NCBI GenBank assembly: GCA_041688385.1
Contig: JBDNIH010000017.1
Span: 1-44,807, forward strand
Source: Bacteroidia bacterium
GTDB taxonomy: Bacteria; Bacteroidota; Bacteroidia; UBA7662
Direction: 5' to 3'
Length of the DNA stretch: 44,807 nt
The position numbers and the translations under genes are program-made. Shown here piece after piece: positions 29,313 through 38,586 of the stretch (position 1 is the first letter of the stretch; every line of letters starts with the position of its first letter). The notes beneath the pieces were generated by a model. That model saw only the letters and a list, made by a program, of their open reading frames with translations, searched no databases and was not told where the DNA came from.

Positions 29313-29909
29313 ATGAAATATCTTTTAATAATCGTGCTTGGTCTTTTAACGACTAGCCTATCTGCCCAACAAGACAACTGGAAGGAAAACAAGGCCTTCC
29401 AGCGTATAAAATTGGAAAATTCACGCGGCAAAAAAGTCAAGCTCCGAGACATCGACTATTACAAGGCAACGGTGATTGTGTTTTTATCGCCTGAATGTCC
29501 GCTAAGTCTTAATTACACCAAAAACTTACGCGAATTACATCAGCACTTTACAGAAGAAAACATTCTTTTTCTTGGCGTTTATGCTGGGAATGACTTGTCA
29601 ATGCAGGAAATAGAAAGCTTTAGACAAAAGTATAAGTTGCCCTTCGACATTTTAATCGATGGCCATTTTGAACTCGCTCAACTACTCATGGCAACCAAAA
29701 CTCCTGAGGTATTTTTAACCGACCCATGGGGTGGAATACAATACCGGGGGGCGATTGATGATTGGGCGATTGCATTGGGGAAAGTTAAGTCGATAGCAGA
29801 GGTAGAATACCTCTCCCTTGCACTCGAAAAATGGCTAATGAACGAGCCTATTTGGCCTAACGAAACCAGCGTAATTGGCTGTCTACTAGAATTTCCTGCA
29901 AAACTTTGA
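29313..29909 (+). CDS. Exported redoxin (AhpC/TSA thioredoxin-fold) protein
   Basis: Signal peptide; ECPLS (CxxS), TPEVF cis-Pro motif, YRGAIDD, C-terminal IGC. Confidence 0.85.
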   Translation: MKYLLIIVLGLLTTSLSAQQDNWKENKAFQRIKLENSRGKKVKLRDIDYYKATVIVFLSPECPLSLNYTKNLRELHQHFTEENILFLGVYAGNDLSMQEIESFRQKYKLPFDILIDGHFELAQLLMATKTPEVFLTDPWGGIQYRGAIDDWAIALGKVKSIAEVEYLSLALEKWLMNEPIWPNETSVIGCLLEFPAKL

Positions 29910-31237
29910 AATACAAACTGCTTTTATTGACGTTCCTACTGTTTTTCAATGATCAACTGGATGCGCAGCAACTATACTATTACAATGACATCGCTCCGCT
30001 ATTGTTACAGAAATGTGGCAGCTGTCATCGGGAGGGGGGTGGTGCACCCTTCGAATTGCTTGAATATCGGCACTACGCCAAACGTAAAAACTTCATAAAA
30101 GAAGTTGTTAGTAGTGGATATATGCCACCTTGGACTGCCGACAGCCACTACCGGTCTTTTGCAAATGAGAAAATACTCACTCCTAGTCAAAAAGACAGCA
30201 TAATTAGCTGGATTGAACAAGGTGCTAAGGCGGGTAAAGTAGTGGCTAAACCAGCGTTAATCGCTATGAATACAGAATTTGGGCTTGGCAAACCGGATAT
30301 AGAACTACGCATGCCAGAAGCCTATTACGTTCCAGGCAATAACAAACATCATTACATCTGTTATAAAATCCCCTATGAACTTCCTGGAGATGCCTATGTA
30401 AAGGCCATTGAATTTGTGCCGGGCAACCGCGCGCTTGTCCACCACGCCAGCTATCAGCTATTCGGTGTTTCAGCGGAAGTAGATCCCAAAAAAGGCCCCA
30501 ATTATTATGTATTCAGCCCCGATAGTGCGGCCAGCGTGGATGATGCCCGTGATTTTAGTTATTTCCAGCTTATTGACAGCTTAGGAAATTATCCCTTTCC
30601 GGTATTTCACAGTGGTTATCTGCCCGGCTCTGGTGTTCAGGAGTATCCTGCGGGTATTGGTTTTGCAATGCCACGACGGGGAGTGCTTATTATTCGCTCC
30701 CTTCACTATTCACCTACCCCATTGCCGGCAACCGATCAAAGTTCCGTACGCCTGTGGCTTTCCGACACCCCTATTGAACGCACGCTTGAATTTGCTGCAT
30801 TCAAGCCTCGCATTGCCGGCGATACCATTCCAGCCGATAGTACTAGAACCTACTACATTAACATACGTACGAAAGGAGATATGTCTCTTTTGCATATTAA
30901 TCCCCACATGCACCAATTGGGAAAATCTTTCAAAGCTTGGGCGCTCACGCCAACAGGAGATACCATTCCTCTAGTCTACATTCCACACTGGGATTTTAAT
31001 TGGCAAGCGTTTTATCGTTACAAAAAGATGCTGAAAATTCCTGGGGGCTCTATTATTCATGCCGAAGCAGTCTACGACAATAGCACTGCCAATCCTTCCA
31101 ATCCTAACCGGCCACCCAAACCCATGCGCATAGAAACGGGCAGTATGGACGATACAACTGAAATGATGCGGCTTGTTTTTCTGTATGTGCCGTACTTAAC
31201 AGGTGATGAAAATATCTCTTTGGAGACGCTCGATTAG
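29906..31237 (+). CDS. Exported c-type heme + type II copper monooxygenase (PHM/DBH-like) protein
   Basis: Signal peptide; CGSCH heme motif and MPPW; VHH, LHY, PHMH and EMM match the CuH/CuM ligand pattern; WDFNWQ; TTGA overlap with the redoxin. Confidence 0.82.
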   Translation: MKYKLLLLTFLLFFNDQLDAQQLYYYNDIAPLLLQKCGSCHREGGGAPFELLEYRHYAKRKNFIKEVVSSGYMPPWTADSHYRSFANEKILTPSQKDSIISWIEQGAKAGKVVAKPALIAMNTEFGLGKPDIELRMPEAYYVPGNNKHHYICYKIPYELPGDAYVKAIEFVPGNRALVHHASYQLFGVSAEVDPKKGPNYYVFSPDSAASVDDARDFSYFQLIDSLGNYPFPVFHSGYLPGSGVQEYPAGIGFAMPRRGVLIIRSLHYSPTPLPATDQSSVRLWLSDTPIERTLEFAAFKPRIAGDTIPADSTRTYYINIRTKGDMSLLHINPHMHQLGKSFKAWALTPTGDTIPLVYIPHWDFNWQAFYRYKKMLKIPGGSIIHAEAVYDNSTANPSNPNRPPKPMRIETGSMDDTTEMMRLVFLYVPYLTGDENISLETLD

Positions 31238-31325
31238 CGTGCTGTTGTCTTTTTTAATTGTTATGCTGTTTGCTTTTTAAGCGCACAGTAGGTCTTGGAA
31301 AACAAAAATATAACAACTACTCGGA

Positions 31326-33260
31326 TTAGTACACACCGCCGATTACCCTCTTGTTCAGTGCTTCTGAAGGGAAAGTTGGTAAGCTTAAGGGCCTTTCCGT
31401 CAATCCCGAAGTATCTGTGAGTGATTGCATAAAAGCAACCAAAGCCCTTTTCTCTACTTCATCTAAAATCAGTGAATCAAAAGGTAATGTCTGATAGGGC
31501 ACGTCTAAGCCCAAGCCAGCTCCGCCTCCTTTGTGGTAAAATTCAATAACATCTGCAAGCGTTTCAAAAGCTCCATTGTGCATATAAGGGGCAGTCAATA
31601 CAATGTTTCGAACAGTTACTGTTTTAAATGAATTTTGATATATCACACTACTTTCTTTTGGAACACCTCCTGCCCTTCCTATATCTGGATCAAGGGTATA
31701 TGGAGGAAAGGAAGTGGTCGGTACACCTAGTATTTCTGATTCCTGCTCCTGATACAGCGGCGGCACTATGCCTCCAAAACTAGGCGCAAAATGACAAGTT
31801 CCACAAACTGCTTTGCCCATAAACAGATTGAAACCTTGTTTAACTTCCGTAGCTATTTCCGCTTTCTCTCCCCTGACATATTGATCGAAAGGACTATTGA
31901 ATGACCTCAAGCTAACCACATAGGCAGAAAGCGCCGTATTAAGGGTATATGGACTAATCGGATCTTGATCAAAAACTGGAAATGTTTGGCGAAACAACGT
32001 TATATACTCTTGACTTTTATTAATTTTTTGTATCACCTCAAGCATGGTACTGTTGAATTCATCTTTATTTACCATGACGTGCTCGAACTGCGTTTCCAAT
32101 AAGTTCGTGCGCATATCCCAGAAAAAACGCGGTGAGTAAACCGCATTAAGTAACGTTGGCGCATTACGTTTAACGGTTGATTGCATACCAGTAGCCAAAC
32201 TTTTAGCTAGGCCATCTGTAAAGCCTTTTTCCGGCTGATGACAGGATGCACAGGCCCTATCATTAGTCGAAGACAAAACTGGGTCAAAAAAAAGCAGTTT
32301 ACCCAAGGCAATTCTATTCGAATCGTAATCTGCTTCCATCATTTGGGTGAAGTAAAATGGGTTGAGAAAATCGGCTGAAAACAAATTATTAGCTTGGTAA
32401 TTGACGGCCACTTTAGGCATAGTGCTTACACTGCGCTGAGGATATCCCAGTACCTGATGCATGGTTAGCAAATCGGCGAAAAGTGGATTTATACAGCTTT
32501 TCAAAAAAGTGAGTCGGTCAAAATTATCAAAGTCTGTTTCTTTAGCCAGTTGTTTGTTGCCAACACTCAAACTTTTCTCCAGTTGTTTCGCTAATACATC
32601 ATCCTGCTGTGTTAGAAGATTCATATACTCCTTGGTCACAGATGATATTCTACCAAAAGCGGCTTTGGATTCAGTAAGACTTTCACCGGAAGCAGGACAA
32701 TCAAAGCCTGTCAAGTCAAGGGTAAAAAGTCTTACTAAGCCAAATCGTAAGGCTTCAAGTATCAGCTGATCATCCAATTGTACATTTTTCTGAAAACGAT
32801 AAAAATCAAAAGCAGTTTTCTGAAGTTCACGTGCTAATTCTTTAGCAATAATTTGATTACTAATGGATTGTTCACTCCAAAGTACTTCTTCCAAAGGCTG
32901 AAACCCTTTTGGATTTAATACTTCTATTTGGGAATAATTACGTTCTAATTTTGGCAAGGGAGCACCGTTAATATAGTCCTTCACATACTCAGGATCTAAA
33001 TAATCGGCTAGGAAAGACGCCTTTTTATATGCCAATCGTGCCTGTAAGAAGAGTGATTGCAACTGGACGAAATTTCCGCCCTGATCGAGTGAATCTGCCA
33101 AGATTTGCAAGTGAGTTGCCATCTCCAACAAATCGCTGTGGTATTGCACACTTATTTTACCTGCGGGCGAGATATGATCGTCGTTACGCATGGAAAGTGC
33201 TGCAAAATAAATTAGCCCCAGCAGCAGCAGCAGTGTTTTGACATTCTTTTTATTGGTCAT
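31326..33260 (-). CDS. Diheme cytochrome c peroxidase/MauG-family protein with an N-terminal imelysin-like helical domain
   Basis: LGKLLFFDPVLS, CASCH, RNAPTLLN, FFWD, CGTCH, FKT.TVRN..LTAPYMHNG; N-terminal ARLAYKK and GFQPLEE; ATG 33260 gives a signal peptide, whereas the track's upstream start runs through the terminator. Confidence 0.88.
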   Translation of the reverse strand: MTNKKNVKTLLLLLGLIYFAALSMRNDDHISPAGKISVQYHSDLLEMATHLQILADSLDQGGNFVQLQSLFLQARLAYKKASFLADYLDPEYVKDYINGAPLPKLERNYSQIEVLNPKGFQPLEEVLWSEQSISNQIIAKELARELQKTAFDFYRFQKNVQLDDQLILEALRFGLVRLFTLDLTGFDCPASGESLTESKAAFGRISSVTKEYMNLLTQQDDVLAKQLEKSLSVGNKQLAKETDFDNFDRLTFLKSCINPLFADLLTMHQVLGYPQRSVSTMPKVAVNYQANNLFSADFLNPFYFTQMMEADYDSNRIALGKLLFFDPVLSSTNDRACASCHQPEKGFTDGLAKSLATGMQSTVKRNAPTLLNAVYSPRFFWDMRTNLLETQFEHVMVNKDEFNSTMLEVIQKINKSQEYITLFRQTFPVFDQDPISPYTLNTALSAYVVSLRSFNSPFDQYVRGEKAEIATEVKQGFNLFMGKAVCGTCHFAPSFGGIVPPLYQEQESEILGVPTTSFPPYTLDPDIGRAGGVPKESSVIYQNSFKTVTVRNIVLTAPYMHNGAFETLADVIEFYHKGGGAGLGLDVPYQTLPFDSLILDEVEKRALVAFMQSLTDTSGLTERPLSLPTFPSEALNKRVIGGVY

Positions 33261-33273
33261 TTTTAATGTATTA

Positions 33274-33304
33274 AATAAAAAGACCCGGCCTAAGCCAGGT
33301 CTTT
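33274..33304 (-). terminator. Intrinsic terminator/stabilising hairpin between phoX and the diheme gene
   Basis: Minus strand AAAGACCTGGC-TTAG-GCCGGGTCTTT followed by TTATTT (11-bp stem with one G-U pair). Confidence 0.78.
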
Positions 33305-33321
33305 CCTTCAAATGAAATAAA

Positions 33322-35163
33322 TTACTGAATGATCAGTTTTTGAGTTTGACCTTTGCCATTGGTAACGAAATAGGTACCTGCATTTAGATCATAAATATCA
33401 ATCACGGTCGCATTTTTGGAGACTTTCATCTGTTTGCCTTGCAAATCGCGAATAACAATGTCGCTGGCTTCATTAAAGTGAAGCTCACGGGAAGCAGGAT
33501 TCGGCCAAATCTGGAATTCGTTTCCAGTGAATTCCGGTCCATTCAACGAAGACGCCAAGGCATCCCAGCCGGAGATTGCCATAGTAAGTGAATTATTAAA
33601 AGGGAAGGTATTATTTGTACTTGGGTGCTGAATGTTGAACAAGAGTGTTTTAGCACCTGGAATCCAACGGGCACCAGTAACCTCCGAACCATTAGGGACC
33701 ACAGCAATACGCTTTAACTTGTTTAAAGTTGGATTTGGATCACTTATGTCATATAAAAACATCTCACAAGTAGAACTGCTGCTACCTGAAGGAACGCGTC
33801 CGAAGGACGTGCCATTCAAATCCTCTTGGATAACCATGAAAGTTTTGCCTTCGATTTCCATAAAGGTTAAACCATCAGGATTGGTTAAATGAACGCTTGG
33901 GTAGGCGGCTGGCTCACCTGCAGGTAGAAATGGACCCCCTTCGATGAATACATTCATCGTACTTGTAGTAGGATTAAAGACGTTTACACGGCCATAATAG
34001 TCTTTGAAGTTCCTTTTGAGGAAGAAGTTCTTCACTGAATCATCATTTTGGGCAGCAAGTTCAGGATGACGAACACGTACCGCCTGTACCCAATGGTTAT
34101 CAACTGTAGCACCGAGGTTGAAGGTTGACTGAAAGGCTGAACCGATATCATCCCGACCTGTCTCTGTGAAATATACCATACCGTTATGCTGTGCCACCCA
34201 TTCTGCGCGATTGAACATGGCTGCACCTCGTGCAAATGCAAGTGCTGACATACGATTTAATGAGTCAAGATTCGTATTCGGAAGCTGAACCCAACTACCA
34301 TCGGCTTTCCAAGCAAACAAATCACCAGAAGTGAAATCACCAGCGGTATTGGCTACAAATTTTACCCAAGGAGCAGGTGATTCGTCTATACCCAAATAAA
34401 CCGTTTTGTTGTCGGCCATTACTACTCCACCTTCAAAACCACCACGACCCCAGTTGTATTGCTTGCGGATGGCTTTGGCCAACTTTGGGTCAATTTCAGT
34501 CATGTAGTTCAGATTTTGAAAACGTTTGAGGGTTATTCCATTAAAGCCAGGGAAACCGGCAACGCCAGAAGTTCCAATAACAAAGTCAGAGGTATCGGTA
34601 ATACCAGCGCCATTCGCAAAAATACCTGCGTTTGAGTTCTGGAACCATTCTTCCGCTGTCCAAATACGACCATCAGGGGCGACAATACCACCGCAGTTCA
34701 TACCAGTCTGACCAGTTGCCGTAAAATCAACATTGAAAAATTTTCCACTGCGTCCGTCAGCAAGGGATTGGTTTACAACCAAAAGACTATCTCCACTTTT
34801 ACGGATTTTGAAAGAGGTCATACCACCACCATCGCCAATTTTGGGATTAGCAATTATCATTTCATGGTTAACAACCACCCAGCCGAGGTCTTGCGAACCT
34901 GCAGTATTATCGGTAGTAAAACCAATGAAATCATGCCACTGCTTTGCTAATGCGCTGCCATTTGGCTGACCGTTCTGGTTTACAGTTGCAACAGAATCAT
35001 GACCACCAATAAACAACACTTGGGTTTTTAAAGGTGAAGGGGGAACAATAACCGTAGTAGAATTGTAGTTTCCGATGGACGGAGGAACCGTTGGAATGTT
35101 TTGTGCCGATACGGTCGCTGAGACTGCGAAGAGGGCACTCATTAGTACATGTTTTTTCATCAT
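33322..35163 (-). CDS. phoX: PhoX-family (DUF839) alkaline phosphatase with T9SS C-terminal sorting domain
   Basis: NHE, NCGG...AEE, GRGGFEG, GIDE, NRAEW, NPDGL, IQED, EVTG, NIQHP; Sec signal from MMKKHVL (35163); C-terminal IWPNPA...DLQGK...GTYFV...KLIIQ. Confidence 0.85.
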   Translation of the reverse strand: MMKKHVLMSALFAVSATVSAQNIPTVPPSIGNYNSTTVIVPPSPLKTQVLFIGGHDSVATVNQNGQPNGSALAKQWHDFIGFTTDNTAGSQDLGWVVVNHEMIIANPKIGDGGGMTSFKIRKSGDSLLVVNQSLADGRSGKFFNVDFTATGQTGMNCGGIVAPDGRIWTAEEWFQNSNAGIFANGAGITDTSDFVIGTSGVAGFPGFNGITLKRFQNLNYMTEIDPKLAKAIRKQYNWGRGGFEGGVVMADNKTVYLGIDESPAPWVKFVANTAGDFTSGDLFAWKADGSWVQLPNTNLDSLNRMSALAFARGAAMFNRAEWVAQHNGMVYFTETGRDDIGSAFQSTFNLGATVDNHWVQAVRVRHPELAAQNDDSVKNFFLKRNFKDYYGRVNVFNPTTSTMNVFIEGGPFLPAGEPAAYPSVHLTNPDGLTFMEIEGKTFMVIQEDLNGTSFGRVPSGSSSSTCEMFLYDISDPNPTLNKLKRIAVVPNGSEVTGARWIPGAKTLLFNIQHPSTNNTFPFNNSLTMAISGWDALASSLNGPEFTGNEFQIWPNPASRELHFNEASDIVIRDLQGKQMKVSKNATVIDIYDLNAGTYFVTNGKGQTQKLIIQ

Positions 35164-35186
35164 TGTTTGTCGATTTATGACTGATA

Positions 35187-35297
35187 CAAAAATCCGAATG
35201 CATTTCTGCTCTCTTTTTAAGCTATCCTTATGCTTTTGTGACCAATCGACAACCATTCCATTACCACAGTATGAAAACGAATTATCAAAATATTAAG
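35187..35297 (-). promoter_or_regulatory. Putative activator-dependent phoX promoter: degenerate -7 box plus an 11-bp periodic (Pho-box-like) repeat array
   Basis: GATTTTTG at 35194-35187; + strand pentamers at 35217 TTAAG, 35228 TTATG, 35239 TGACC, 35250 CAACC, 35261 TTACC, 35272 TGAAA, 35282 TTATC, 35293 TTAAG. Confidence 0.5.
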
Positions 35298-35370
35298 AAC
35301 CAATTCCTCTAGAAATCCTTTTATACCTTATTGACTCGTAACAGGCCTTTTGCTGCTTCATATATAATTT

Positions 35371-36630
35371 ATGCTTAATACATTGGTGCTTCTGCTCCTT
35401 TTTTTCGGAATTGACCTCTATGCTTTCCGACTACTCTTCAGGTGGAAACGTTTTAGAAAGCCTTCCAAAACGTTGGTTCGCTGGTATTGGTTAGCTGCTA
35501 TTTTAGTCTACCTGTTTGTGATTATTCTCAATCTCTATGGTTACAATAATGCCGATCCAGGCCTGCGCAATCTGGCAGTTGGTTATAGTGGCTTATTGTT
35601 TTTTACCAAATTGGTGACACTGCCGTTTTTATTAATTGACGATGTACTTGGTTTTTTTCATTGGCTTTGGAGGAAAGCCACGGGTTACACAGAGAAAAAA
35701 CGTATTGTAAGCGACCCCTCCAGAAGTATCAGTCGGTCAGAGTTTTTAACTCGTATGGCCGTGGTTACAGCTGGTTTGCCCTTCTTATCAATGGGTTACG
35801 GCATGATCAAGGGTGCTTATAACTACCAGGTACGCAACATTCGACTCAAATTCCCCAATTTACCTTCTGCTTTTCATGGAACACGTATTGTGCAGCTGAG
35901 CGATATCCACTCCGGTTCTTTTGCCGATCGTTCAGCGGTAGAAAGAGGTATACAGCTTGTAATCGACCAAAAACCCGACTATATATTTTTTACAGGCGAC
36001 TTAGTCAATAATAGCACGGCTGAAGTGCTACCTTGGATGAAGGTTTTTTCTCAGCTACAAGCACCTGGAGGAACCTATTCGATTCTAGGTAACCATGATT
36101 ATGGCGATTATAATACTTGGCCAACGGACGAAGCTAAAAAACAAAATCTTACACAAATGCACCAGGCGCATGCAGCCATGGGCTGGCGTTTGCTGCTTAA
36201 TGAAGGCACAATCCTTGAAAAAGATGGGCAAACCATCGGCTTGTTAGGTGTTGAAAACTGGGGTGCGAGAGGTCGATTTTCGCAATACGGTCAACTCGAT
36301 AAAGCCGTAGCGGAAATAGAGGCACAACCTTTCAACATCCTCCTCTCCCACGATCCTACCCATTTCGAAATGGAGGTGCAGGGAAAACAACCACAAATTG
36401 ACCTCACCCTTTCGGGCCATACCCACGGCATGCAGTTCGGTGTAGAAATTCCAGGTTACATTAAATGGAGTCCGGCGTCTTGGATTTACCCTTTTTGGGC
36501 TGGTTTATATCGTTTTGGAAAGCAATATTTATACGTCAACCGTGGATTTGGCTTTATTGGTTATCCTGGTCGTGTTGGAATTTTACCCGAAATCACAGTA
36601 ATAACTATAGAAAAAGAGGGATTGGCCTAA
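35371..36630 (+). CDS. Membrane-anchored calcineurin-like metallophosphoesterase (YkuE/YaeI-like)
   Basis: N-terminal TMs, SRSEFL Tat-like motif, LSDIH, TGDLVN, LGNHDY, LLSHDP, LSGHTHG.Q, YVNRGFG, PEIT. Confidence 0.92.
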   Translation: MLNTLVLLLLFFGIDLYAFRLLFRWKRFRKPSKTLVRWYWLAAILVYLFVIILNLYGYNNADPGLRNLAVGYSGLLFFTKLVTLPFLLIDDVLGFFHWLWRKATGYTEKKRIVSDPSRSISRSEFLTRMAVVTAGLPFLSMGYGMIKGAYNYQVRNIRLKFPNLPSAFHGTRIVQLSDIHSGSFADRSAVERGIQLVIDQKPDYIFFTGDLVNNSTAEVLPWMKVFSQLQAPGGTYSILGNHDYGDYNTWPTDEAKKQNLTQMHQAHAAMGWRLLLNEGTILEKDGQTIGLLGVENWGARGRFSQYGQLDKAVAEIEAQPFNILLSHDPTHFEMEVQGKQPQIDLTLSGHTHGMQFGVEIPGYIKWSPASWIYPFWAGLYRFGKQYLYVNRGFGFIGYPGRVGILPEITVITIEKEGLA

Positions 36631-37868
36631 GCTAAAATTCCGAGTTTACTAAGTAGAAATACCACGCTAAACAAACTTAAAAAAAGGAGTCCGCACCAGC
36701 CCAATAGTTGTAAAAAACGTTTGGGGCGGTAGTTTTCCGGAAAATTTTTATTTCGCACTAATCGAAAATTCCACCAACCCAACACCGGAGCGGTCAAAAA
36801 ACTAAGGGAAGTAGCCAAATCTACGAGCTGCAGCATATTATCGGGCCAGAAATGTAATAGAAACAAAGTCCCGCCTAAAAAAACAGCTAAGGCAAGCCAA
36901 TAGTATAGCGGGTTGTGGTGTTTTTCTCCTCGCATTAAACGAACACTTTCTTGTAATACCCGAGGATAGCCATCGATAACCGTGAGCAAAGTGCTGAACA
37001 TTGTTGCAAAGATGCTAATGGCCACTACTGTGTATGCCCACGGTCCTAGCAACTGCACATAAATACTCAAAAAACCAGCTGCAAAGGCCGCAGCTTGTGC
37101 GGGCAGCGTGGTGGAGGTGCCGAATACAACCACTCCTCCGATAAAAACGAATACAATCGCTAGGAACGTGCTCAGCCAATAACCTAGGTTAAAGTCAAAC
37201 TGAACAGCTTTCCAGCTACTGATGCCGGCTGCTGCCCGTTTTTCGAGCGTCCACAAGGATTGCCAAACCGAAGAATCTACTGGTGTAGGCATCCAACCAG
37301 CAAAGGCAATTAGAAACAATAATCCAGGCAGGTCCCAGCTAAAACTTGCCCCTGCCGCCCTTTGGAGCAGCGGCAGCTGGGTAAATGCAGCGGTTGCGGC
37401 AACCAATGTAGTGATGGTTAGAAGCAACATGATGCCGCGAATAAGGTTATCGAGTAGTTTAAACCTACCAAAAACAAGCACCACAGCACACGAGGTCAGG
37501 GCAAGCATATGAATCAAAAACGGTGGCCAATCGGGCTGTAGTAATTCACTGATGATACCCGTAAAAACTGAACTGATGGCAGCCAAAATTGGAAACATAG
37601 TAAATAAAGTGAGCAGCACAAAAGCCGGCAGCACCCAACGACCAAGTTTTTTGTAACCAGCTAGAAGTGATTGTCCTGTAGCTACAGTGTAGCGGGAGCC
37701 AAATTCAAAAAAAGGATATTTTAAAACATTCACCAGCAATACAAAGCCCAATAAGGCAAAGCCATACAATGCACCTGCCCGAGTAGATTGCACAATGTGA
37801 GAAACACCGACAGCTGCACCAGCATACAACAAGCCGGGTCCTAGCGCCTTTTTCCAATCAGATTGCAT
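36627..37868 (-). CDS. NRAMP-related (APC superfamily) transporter
   Basis: About 11 TM segments; LGPGLLYAGAAVGVSH..QSTRAGA.YG, KYPFFEFG.RY; lacks the canonical DPGN motif. Confidence 0.8.
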   Translation of the reverse strand: MQSDWKKALGPGLLYAGAAVGVSHIVQSTRAGALYGFALLGFVLLVNVLKYPFFEFGSRYTVATGQSLLAGYKKLGRWVLPAFVLLTLFTMFPILAAISSVFTGIISELLQPDWPPFLIHMLALTSCAVVLVFGRFKLLDNLIRGIMLLLTITTLVAATAAFTQLPLLQRAAGASFSWDLPGLLFLIAFAGWMPTPVDSSVWQSLWTLEKRAAAGISSWKAVQFDFNLGYWLSTFLAIVFVFIGGVVVFGTSTTLPAQAAAFAAGFLSIYVQLLGPWAYTVVAISIFATMFSTLLTVIDGYPRVLQESVRLMRGEKHHNPLYYWLALAVFLGGTLFLLHFWPDNMLQLVDLATSLSFLTAPVLGWWNFRLVRNKNFPENYRPKRFLQLLGWCGLLFLSLFSVVFLLSKLGILA

Positions 37869-37869
37869 T

Positions 37870-38586
37870 TTAAGACAGACTCGTCAGGTCATTTATCCCT
37901 ATGGCCCTGCTAACGGTAAACCCTTCCCCATAAGTAGCCTGAATGTGTCGGCCCATCTCTCGAGAACGCGCCTCTAGAAAATTAAGAAAATCTGCTGTAC
38001 TAATTGGTGTTACAGGTTCCTGTGAATCAGCGCTATAAAACTGCGAACTAAAAGCTTTTATTGAAGCTATTTTGATTTCGTATGTAGCAGTGATATCTAC
38101 TACAAAATCGGGTTTTAGATATCGATCTTGGATGTAATGAAACAAGGAGGTTGGTCGCCAAGATACCTGGGATTGACCTTCCCAACTGGTATTTATTTTT
38201 TGCAAACCACTTAAAAAACAGGCATCAGCCACTAAGTCAGCTGCTCTACCGTGATCAATATGGCGATCGGCTATGGCGTTGGCGAGCACCACTTTGGGCT
38301 GGCACAAGCGGATTTGCTGTATGATTGCCAGTAAACTCGCCTCGTTCTTTTCAAAAAAGCCATCACGCATCCGCAGGTTATGGCGGTAATGAACGCCTAA
38401 AACCTTAGAGGATACGGCTGCCTCCAAATCACGGATTTCAGCGCTACCCCGGGTACCCATCTCACCACGGGTTAAATCGACTATCCCGACTTTTTGACCC
38501 ATTTGAATATGTTTCACCAATGTCCCAGCGCAACTAAGTTCCACGTCATCGGGATGTGCAGCAAAAGCAAGTATGTCAAGTTTCAT
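37870..38586 (-). CDS. bshB1: Bacillithiol biosynthesis deacetylase BshB1 (PIG-L family)
   Basis: MKLDILAFAAHPDDVEL, DLTRGEMGTRG, DRHIDH, PDFVVDIT, SQF, YGEGF. Confidence 0.88.
   Translation of the reverse strand: MKLDILAFAAHPDDVELSCAGTLVKHIQMGQKVGIVDLTRGEMGTRGSAEIRDLEAAVSSKVLGVHYRHNLRMRDGFFEKNEASLLAIIQQIRLCQPKVVLANAIADRHIDHGRAADLVADACFLSGLQKINTSWEGQSQVSWRPTSLFHYIQDRYLKPDFVVDITATYEIKIASIKAFSSQFYSADSQEPVTPISTADFLNFLEARSREMGRHIQATYGEGFTVSRAIGINDLTSLS

Follow-up and report, generated by a model that had tools for sequence, protein, structure and literature searches.

The window analysed here is a complete contig of 44,807 nucleotides (JBDNIH010000017.1, GenBank assembly GCA_041688385.1) from a Bacteroidia bacterium of the UBA7662 lineage, whose genome comprises 2.8 Mb in 351 contigs; the 44.8-kb contig was taken as a whole. 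Four open reading frames (ORFs) between positions 29313 and 35256 are arranged as two convergent pairs. A redoxin is followed by a cytochrome c/PHM-like copper monooxygenase, the start of the second ORF overlapping the stop of the first by 4 bases, and these two genes face a PhoX-like protein followed by a fusion of an M75 (EfeO/EfeM/imelysin-like) domain with a MauG-type di-haem domain (Table 1). Read from the sequence, the N-termini of all four proteins are signal or anchor sequences of the Sec type, not of the twin-arginine (Tat) type, and a sorting tag of the type IX secretion system (T9SS) is confined to the PhoX-like protein. In the comparisons described below, the PhoX-like gene and the fusion gene form a near-obligate core, and the PHM-like gene is an accessory to it.

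The four proteins

The PhoX-like protein matches Pfam PhoX (PF05787) at 5e-21; it scores 75.9 bits (cut-off 24), and 74.4 bits when the genome is searched. Its C-terminus matches both Por_Secre_tail (4.5e-8, 33.7 bits, cut-off 27) and NCBIfam TIGR04183 (1.1e-8, 35 bits, cut-off 23). Although the ORF extends to 35256, the true start is probably at 35163 or 35160, because the relatives begin at MKK. The family profile A6 finds the solved Fe/Ca PhoX (3zwu/4amf) at 1.6e-11, in two stretches, and the single sequence finds solved PhoX with phmmer at 8e-5. In an alignment of 56 PhoX-like sequences, C157, E171/E172 and many Asp and Glu residues are invariant.

The C-terminal half of the fusion matches Pfam CCP_MauG at 3.7e-44 (151.4 bits, cut-off 25.6), and the protein contains two CxxCH motifs, C354/C357/H358 (354-358) and C503/C506/H507 (503-507). 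Among solved structures, the di-haem domain finds the bacterial cytochrome c peroxidase (bCCP) 2c1u at 3.6e-34, the di-haem enzyme 6e1c at 1.9e-28 and MauG at about 5e-21. All 76 fusions compared have Y592, which the alignment with the Paracoccus peroxidase 2c1u puts opposite the final Met of 'KIM'. In the peroxidase, this Met provides the axial ligand to the high-potential haem; Tyr in its position is the hallmark of MauG. Within NCBIfam, the protein scores highest against the equivalogs MauG and MbnH (TIGR03791, TIGR04039), but far below their cut-offs, with 172.8 bits against 443.85 for MauG (9.3e-51) and 183.5 bits against 362.85 for the MbnH family (5.5e-54). Judged by these scores, the domain is MauG-type and not MauG, a member of the CCP_MauG superfamily only.

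The N-terminal part of the fusion, about 330 residues, has no Pfam match, and none to M75 (PF09375) at E values up to 0.01. Its relationship to the M75 family emerges from profile and fold comparisons. The domain profile A3, built from 56 sequences, finds EfeM (7q1g, 1.1e-6) and EfeO (7wgu, 3.2e-6), as well as Algp7. The AlphaFold2 (AF2) model has a predicted local distance difference test score (pLDDT) of 93.4, and Foldseek matches it to EfeM 7q1g, Algp7 and EfeO with E values of 6e-7 to 2e-5 and template modelling (TM) scores of 0.69-0.81, in agreement with a fold of paired four-helix bundles. A predicted complex of the PhoX-like protein (residues 22-540) with the M75 domain alone scored 0.05 against a mark of 0.32.

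The PHM-like protein consists of a cytochrome c domain (residues ~22-105, with CGSCH at 37-41) and a two-copper core like that of PHM and dopamine beta-hydroxylase (DBH; residues ~127-443). In a 42-sequence alignment, the haem c motif C37/C40/H41 and M73 are invariant, the copper ligands H179, H267, H334, H336 and M420 are found in 42 of 42 sequences, and H180 is kept in at least 90%. The ligand order HH...H...HxH...M is the CuH (H, H, H) and CuM (H, H, M) pattern of PHM/DBH. The family profile finds human DBH (4zel) at 3.5e-7 with HH, H and HxH aligned. The AF2 model (pLDDT 90.4) has the core fold of two beta-sandwiches, and its top 30-odd Foldseek matches are all PHM or DBH, with E values of about 1e-13 to 1e-12 and TM scores by target of about 0.6. 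The protein is thus truly homologous to the copper monooxygenases of animals, but has a cytochrome c domain of its own. In Pfam, Cu2_monoox_C reaches 19.6 bits against a threshold of 23, Cytochrome_CBB3 is sub-threshold, and the model of the N-terminal Cu2_monoox domain has no match. Because the Pfam threshold is missed, the protein is called PHM-like and not a member of the curated family. A literature search found no characterised member of this cytochrome c/PHM-like bacterial family.

Further observations concern the same family. The profile of the cytochrome c domain (29969-30220) weakly matches hydrazine synthase alpha (5c2v) in its C-terminal haem domain (0.0041), centred on the motif 'DI.PI...KC..CH'. 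A second pair of redoxin and PHM-like genes in the source genome (G000:C294:31375-33218) is 34% identical and falls into another clade; the genome also has incomplete PHM-like genes at the ends of two contigs (C203:49-663 and C232:12-368).

The redoxin matches Pfam AhpC-TSA at 1.1e-12 (48.4 bits, cut-off 26) and Redoxin at 7.9e-7. Its active site reads C62-P-L-S65, and position 65 is Cys in 35 and Ser in 31 of 76 relatives. C62, P63, Y144, G146, G189 and C190, the last of these near the C-terminus, are invariant in all 76. The protein does not appear to be a dithiol reductase of the classical kind; it may instead have a Cys62/Cys190 pair or bind a metal (copper).

A preliminary description of this DNA, made from the sequence alone, had listed four adjacent exported metal/redox proteins in two convergent pairs, and this inventory is confirmed: the ORFs lie where it had placed them. 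The CxxS redoxin is present, and the c-haem PHM-like enzyme has its haem motif, the full six-ligand copper set and the PHM/DBH fold. The T9SS-tagged PhoX exceeds both the PhoX and the Por_Secre_tail cut-offs. The name imelysin-MauG fusion is correct as well, imelysin at the level of the fold (EfeM-type profile and AF2 model) and MauG through CCP_MauG. The same description had reported a periodic repeat array upstream of phoX, and here it was mistaken: Tandem Repeats Finder returned nothing in 35164-35370, and a low-threshold repeat search upstream of phoX yielded no more than a single 8-nt match in two copies and four inverted repeats, all weak.

Linkage of the genes across Bacteroidota

The PhoX-seeded scan covered contigs of one genome per species and retained the best 80 of 131 relatives. 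The fusion gene lies directly downstream of the PhoX-like gene, on the same strand, in 79 of these 80 loci, and the 80th contig ends 200 bp past PhoX. The same downstream place is occupied by a fusion in two distant PhoX-like branches (G055 and G355, ~30-37% identity over part of the sequence). A 38%-identical PhoX-like gene in G277 has no nearby fusion; consequently, the pairing is not universal in the PhoX-like family. In G015 (L004:8038-14122), a 34%-identical fusion adjoins a protein of more than 916 amino acids that joins Phytase-like and PhoX domains; this distant fusion is also flanked by a small T9SS-tagged protein.

The two pairs of the window might also be neighbours by coincidence or through plain lineage synteny, with no shared function. 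The window's own genus, where the entire neighbourhood is syntenic, would agree with this but is by itself uninformative. In G012, from another genus, and in G014, from another family (spread over two contig ends), however, the same four genes run co-directionally, with small or overlapping junctions, between unrelated flanks, in the order PhoX, fusion, redoxin, PHM-like. Because both keep the four genes co-directional, the convergent layout of the window represents a genus-level inversion of an ancestral co-directional operon. Seventeen of the 80 loci from the PhoX-seeded scan have a PHM-like gene no further than 10 kb away: 8 have a redoxin, 7 have a Rieske [2Fe-2S] protein between fusion and PHM-like gene, and in 2 the PHM-like gene directly follows the fusion. 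The flanks differ in many of these loci too, and at least 7 gene orders are found, including redoxin-PHM upstream of PhoX, PHM-redoxin-PhoX and PhoX-fusion-redoxin-PHM. The Rieske protein stands in the place of the redoxin at these 7 of 17 PHM-positive genome loci and at one metagenome locus (together L087, L089, L093, L097, L100, L106, L111 and L137).

In a tree of 55 PHM-like proteins, all 19 PhoX-adjacent members fall into one clade (Shimodaira-Hasegawa-like approximate likelihood ratio test, SH-aLRT, 99), and its sister clade comes from SusC/SusD loci. Since 17 of the 19 had been found through PhoX, an independent PHM-seeded scan of metagenomes was run, covering the best 80 of at least 565 relatives. 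Ten of these 80 loci belong to the PhoX-linked clade; nine of the ten carry PhoX and/or the fusion, and the tenth lies at a contig end, with only 22 bp of sequence upstream of it. None of the 70 loci outside the clade, among the same best 80, carries PhoX or the fusion. In a 401-genome sample of the phylum, a PHM-like gene is present in 11 of 12 genomes with a PhoX-like orthologue and in 21 of 389 others; these 12 genomes represent few families, and the PHM-like gene that most of them carry is of another clade. Clustering of the PHM-positive loci in one part of the PhoX tree (see below) leaves some room for coincidence, but a clade never found away from PhoX or the fusion in the PHM-seeded scan (9 of 10 loci, the other at a contig end), together with the changing gene orders and flanks, makes coincidental adjacency a disfavoured and very improbable explanation.

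What this analysis adds is the link of the PHM-like family to PhoX and the fusion, which is strictly specific to one clade; a literature search found no paper that connects the PhoX/M75-MauG pair with the redoxin/cytochrome c/PHM-like family. The suggestion in the preliminary description that the four genes act as one unit is upheld by the co-directional sets and by the clade found only beside PhoX or the fusion. It applies unevenly: the PhoX/fusion part stands at 79 of 80 loci, but the PHM-like gene joins in only 17 of 80, where it has a Rieske protein instead of the redoxin in 7 cases and no partner in 2. The rare co-occurrence of the two pairs, which that description had named as the sign of coincidence, is not what the Bacteroidota gene-neighbourhood comparison found.

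Redoxins accompany PHM-like genes more generally, at 15 of 36 genome loci and at 33 of the 44 metagenome loci that lie outside the PhoX-linked clade and have at least 1 kb on both sides. The sister-clade loci (L009:2343-15339 and, similarly, L011, L012, L013, L015 and L035) contain a ROK regulator, SusC, SusD, a redoxin, the PHM-like protein, an FG-GAP/ASPIC-UnbV protein of 1129 amino acids and a PAP2 protein. This PAP2 protein is closely homologous (2.9e-145) to 4cit, a vanadium-dependent iodoperoxidase of solved structure.

Such H2O2-using neighbours fit the peroxide theme of a further explanation, in which the fusion would oxidise iron or handle peroxide in the periplasm as a general system, comparable to EfeO/EfeB or to imelysin/di-haem pairs, and would merely be co-regulated with an iron-dependent phosphatase; the redoxin and PHM-like protein would be a separate peroxide- or copper-linked module. 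The M75 fold and the profile similarity to EfeM/EfeO are in keeping with this. It would be surprising, however, for a general system to follow PhoX-like genes directly in nearly every locus and to accompany two further distant branches, and no conserved EfeU-type permease is found nearby. The His of the HxxE motif is replaced, and the haloperoxidase link extends to no more than 5 of 36 loci in genomes and 1 of 80 in metagenomes. This explanation is consequently regarded as unlikely.

Other genes recur around the PhoX-fusion pairs. The commonest further neighbour, at 25 of 81 loci, encodes an FG-GAP_3 repeat protein of ~510 amino acids (e.g., L048:8210-9751, minus strand), followed by a PorU-like C25 peptidase at 15 loci in Cytophagales-type records. 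Two genomes of the window's genus have an inserted gene at the convergent junction, where an arsenite methyltransferase (NF008823, 371 bits, cut-off 263) separates the fusion from the PHM-like gene (L043:14094-14987, minus strand, and L045); the junction in the window lacks it. Overall, ArsM is found near the pair in 6 of 80 loci and ArsR-type regulators in 7 (also listed are L077, L091, L108, L113 and L134), a recurrence that may reflect arsenate stress during phosphate scavenging. Two loci with Pseudomonadota names of metagenome-assembled genomes, L065 and L068 (Hyphobacterium, Thalassovita), are typical Bacteroidota PhoX-fusion loci, and their labels are probably binning errors.

Matches to sigma-70-type promoters and terminators were no better than shuffle level. 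Counts of k-mers in the 200 nt upstream of PhoX-like genes (L043-L122) revealed a modest excess of TTAACA-type heptamers about 100 nt before the starts, in 19 of 80 loci against ~2-4 in shuffles, which may constitute a candidate regulator site. Their spacing is 21-22 nt in a few loci (e.g., L059), not clearly so in the window, which has one TTAATA. Beyond this region lie a membrane metallophosphoesterase, an Nramp-type transporter and BshB1 (Table 1). The Pho regulon of Flavobacterium contains the pf12850 lipid-remodelling enzyme PlcP (PMC8115612).

Table 1. Features of the locus and its surroundings (positions in the window, except for the Rieske gene, which is taken from locus L087).
Feature	Position	Strand	Basis
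Redoxin, 198 amino acids, exported thioredoxin fold	29313-29909	+	Pfam AhpC-TSA, Redoxin; Sec-type signal peptide read from sequence
Cytochrome c/PHM-like copper monooxygenase	29906-31237	+	Family alignment, profile, AF2/Foldseek
M75-MauG fusion, entire ORF	31326-33311	-	Pfam CCP_MauG C-terminally; EfeM-type profile and fold N-terminally
MauG-type di-haem domain of the fusion	31326-32333	-	Pfam CCP_MauG
EfeO/EfeM/imelysin-like (M75) four-helix-bundle domain of the fusion	32334-33170	-	Profile, AF2, Foldseek
PhoX-like protein, ORF as listed	33322-35256	-	Pfam PhoX and Por_Secre_tail
T9SS C-terminal sorting domain of the PhoX-like protein	33325-33510	-	Por_Secre_tail, TIGR04183
PhoX-family beta-propeller with Sec signal peptide MMKKHVLMSALFAVSATVSAQ	33511-35163	-	Pfam PhoX, profile against solved PhoX
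Intergenic region between phoX and metallophosphoesterase (divergent genes)	35164-35370	.	No repeat array; some blocks conserved within the genus (alignment with two same-genus genomes)
Membrane metallophosphoesterase, divergent from phoX	35371-36630	+	Metallophos 6.4e-16; YaeI/LpxG-like, below cut-offs
Nramp-type metal transporter, next after metallophosphoesterase	36627-37868	-	
BshB1, next after Nramp-type gene	37870-38586	-	280 bits against cut-off 182.5
Rieske [2Fe-2S] protein, 232 amino acids, between fusion and PHM-like gene	L087:7144-7842	+	Pfam 1.4e-12

Proposed function and alternatives

The best explanation, to which a probability of roughly 60% is assigned, is that these genes constitute one conserved extracytoplasmic set for phosphate scavenging. 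Within it, the fusion would mature the phosphatase by oxidation or load it with iron, and the copper module would serve as a redox accessory that is optional. The physiological data come from published work. In Flavobacterium johnsoniae, Fjoh_2478 (PhoX-like) and Fjoh_2477 (MauG-like) form one operon that is strongly co-induced by depletion of inorganic phosphate (Pi; Lidbury et al. 2020 ISME J, PMC8115612). The Flavobacterium gene phoX(Fj), expressed alone in Pseudomonas putida, gave an inactive protein, for which the authors suspect a MauG-made cofactor (2022 PNAS, PMC8812569), and the Bacteroidota form of PhoX is abundant in phosphate-starved exoproteomes (PMC8812569). The pair of PhoX and a MauG-like protein is already known but of unexplained mechanism. 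Hence, the remark in the preliminary description that no characterised pathway has this composition holds for the four-gene set and fails for the pair, which has been published as a Flavobacterium operon induced by Pi starvation (PMC8115612, PMC8812569). The available text of PMC8115612 does not mention a redoxin, thioredoxin or monooxygenase, and a literature search on imelysin together with cytochrome c peroxidase returned nothing relevant.

A mechanism can be proposed on the basis of the domain identities, the ligand patterns and the conserved linkage. The core would be a Sec-exported, T9SS-secreted phosphatase of the PhoX family with a dedicated periplasmic M75/di-haem partner, and the fusion would perform an oxidative maturation step on the phosphatase during its passage through the periplasm. 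This step may be the oxidation of Fe(II) and the hand-over of Fe(III) for the Fe/Ca cofactor, analogous to EfeO/EfeB, an appealing option given that Tat does not export these PhoX proteins. Alternatively, it may be a MauG-style long-range oxidation of a residue of the PhoX-like protein, an option supported by the invariance of Tyr592 and the loss of the histidine of HxxE. The redoxin and the PHM-like protein would form an optional redox module, with a clade specialised for this locus. Most likely, they would serve the same oxidative step, through the supply or control of oxidant or electrons for the di-haem enzyme or through a further hydroxylation. In a minor variant of this proposal, the PHM-like module would supply H2O2 to neighbouring enzymes of the MauG and vanadium haloperoxidase types; it ranks no higher because the haloperoxidase link is so limited.

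Several observations weigh against the proposed set and its mechanism. The PHM-like gene is missing from 63 of the 80 PhoX-fusion loci and is therefore not generally required for the maturation of PhoX. The PHM-positive loci are concentrated in the PhoX tree, with 16 of 18 in one subtree and 7 changes, two of them contig truncations; consequently, the linkage is largely an old co-inheritance that has survived many rearrangements, and not the result of repeated independent gain. The sister PHM-like clades sit in SusC/SusD nutrient-uptake loci, a context that points to small-molecule substrates rather than to protein maturation. In the M75 domain, the HxxE motif reads G136-F-Q138-P-L-E141-E142, with Q in place of the metal-binding H in 56 of 56 sequences, which weakens the case for simple iron binding of the EfeO kind. 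The HMMER profiles A1 and A6 align with 3zwu/4amf over the middle and C-terminal parts only and therefore give no residue-by-residue match to the Fe/Ca ligands. Finally, the Flavobacterium data come from a distant PhoX-like branch.

The nutrient-uptake context of the sister clades is also one of the grounds for an explanation based on serial catalysis. The PHM-like enzyme would hydroxylate a C-H bond next to phosphorus, or to a phosphoester oxygen, in recalcitrant organophosphorus compounds, the PhoX-like propeller would then cleave or hydrolyse the product, and the redoxin or Rieske protein would feed electrons. The analogy is with eukaryotic PAM, in which hydroxylation by PHM is followed by the action of the PAL propeller. 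A complete PHM/DBH ligand set and fold suggest true C-H hydroxylation, the PhoX linkage of the PHM-like clade is strict, and a variable partner (redoxin, Rieske or none) beside a constant cytochrome c domain is consistent with interchangeable electron donors. However, the PHM-like protein, whose signal peptide is plain, lacks a T9SS tag and should therefore stay in the periplasm, whereas the PhoX-like protein is tagged for secretion. The two enzymes would share a substrate pool only if the substrate were imported, no conserved transporter gene is present in the loci, and no candidate substrate is known. The periplasmic location of the PHM-like protein and the SusC/SusD contexts of its sisters thus pull in opposite directions between the accessory role and serial catalysis, and the latter is considered possible, at much lower odds than the maturation-centred explanation given above. 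A bolder form of it, in which a haem-fed PHM-like enzyme and a MauG-matured PhoX propeller would act in series on hydrolysis-resistant organophosphorus, with C-H hydroxylation next to phosphorus and subsequent cleavage as a bacterial counterpart of peptide amidation logic, is doubtful. If true, it would represent a new oxidative route of phosphorus scavenging and give the bacterial PHM-like proteins their first class of substrates.

PhoX-type phosphatases play a major part in the turnover of organic phosphorus. The near-obligate M75-MauG pairing defines what has to be co-expressed when these PhoX enzymes are studied or used, and it suggests periplasmic cofactor assembly for PhoX proteins routed through Sec and T9SS. 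In addition, a clade strictly tied to a Pho-type locus gives a first tangible clue to the function of the bacterial PHM-like proteins, a very large family (at least 565 relatives in one metagenome scan).

Comparison with known systems

The closest published counterpart is the phoX(Fj) operon of F. johnsoniae, in which an exported PhoX-like propeller is likewise followed by a CCP_MauG di-haem protein that, in the authors' proposal, makes the phosphatase functional. The PhoX-like protein of the window belongs to another branch with weak, partial matches to that distant one, has a T9SS tail and is not described as a lipoprotein. The available portions of the F. johnsoniae papers name pf03150 alone for the partner and leave the M75 domain, the PHM-like, redoxin or Rieske accessory and phylum-wide counts unmentioned.

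The Fe/Ca alkaline phosphatase PhoX of Pseudomonas fluorescens (3zwu, 4amf) belongs to the same Pfam family as the window protein and shares motifs with it in the aligned blades. The similarity is distant, however, and the N-terminal half cannot be aligned by HMMER. Proteobacterial PhoX is exported by the Tat route, whereas the window protein carries a Sec signal and a T9SS tail and, in addition, has an obligate di-haem partner.

MauG acts in the biogenesis of tryptophan tryptophylquinone and MbnH in the formation of kynurenine in MbnP; both are di-haem enzymes that oxidise a partner protein. The window enzyme resembles them in its CCP_MauG fold, its two c haems, the Tyr at the axial-Met position of bCCP and the location of its gene beside that of a presumed protein substrate. 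It differs in its fusion to an M75 domain and in scores below both equivalog cut-offs, and its presumed substrate is a PhoX-type propeller, the modification itself being only presumed.

In EfeUOB/EfeM iron uptake, the M75 domain of EfeO works with the haem peroxidase EfeB. The fusion similarly combines an M75 fold with a periplasmic enzyme of the haem peroxidase type, but both functions are placed on one chain, the enzyme is of the di-haem c type and not a DyP, QxxE replaces HxxE, and no EfeU permease is found nearby.

With PHM and DBH (1phm, 1opm, 3mll, 4zel), the PHM-like protein shares the two-domain copper core, the HH/H/HxH/M ligands and the fold. In contrast to these enzymes, it is bacterial, its own cytochrome c domain replaces the supply of ascorbate, it is accompanied by redoxin or Rieske partners, and its Pfam score lies below the cut-off. 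The pairing of PHM with PAL in PAM also has a genetic parallel at the locus, where the PHM-like gene is paired with a metal-dependent beta-propeller, although this propeller is of the PhoX type and not of the PAL type.

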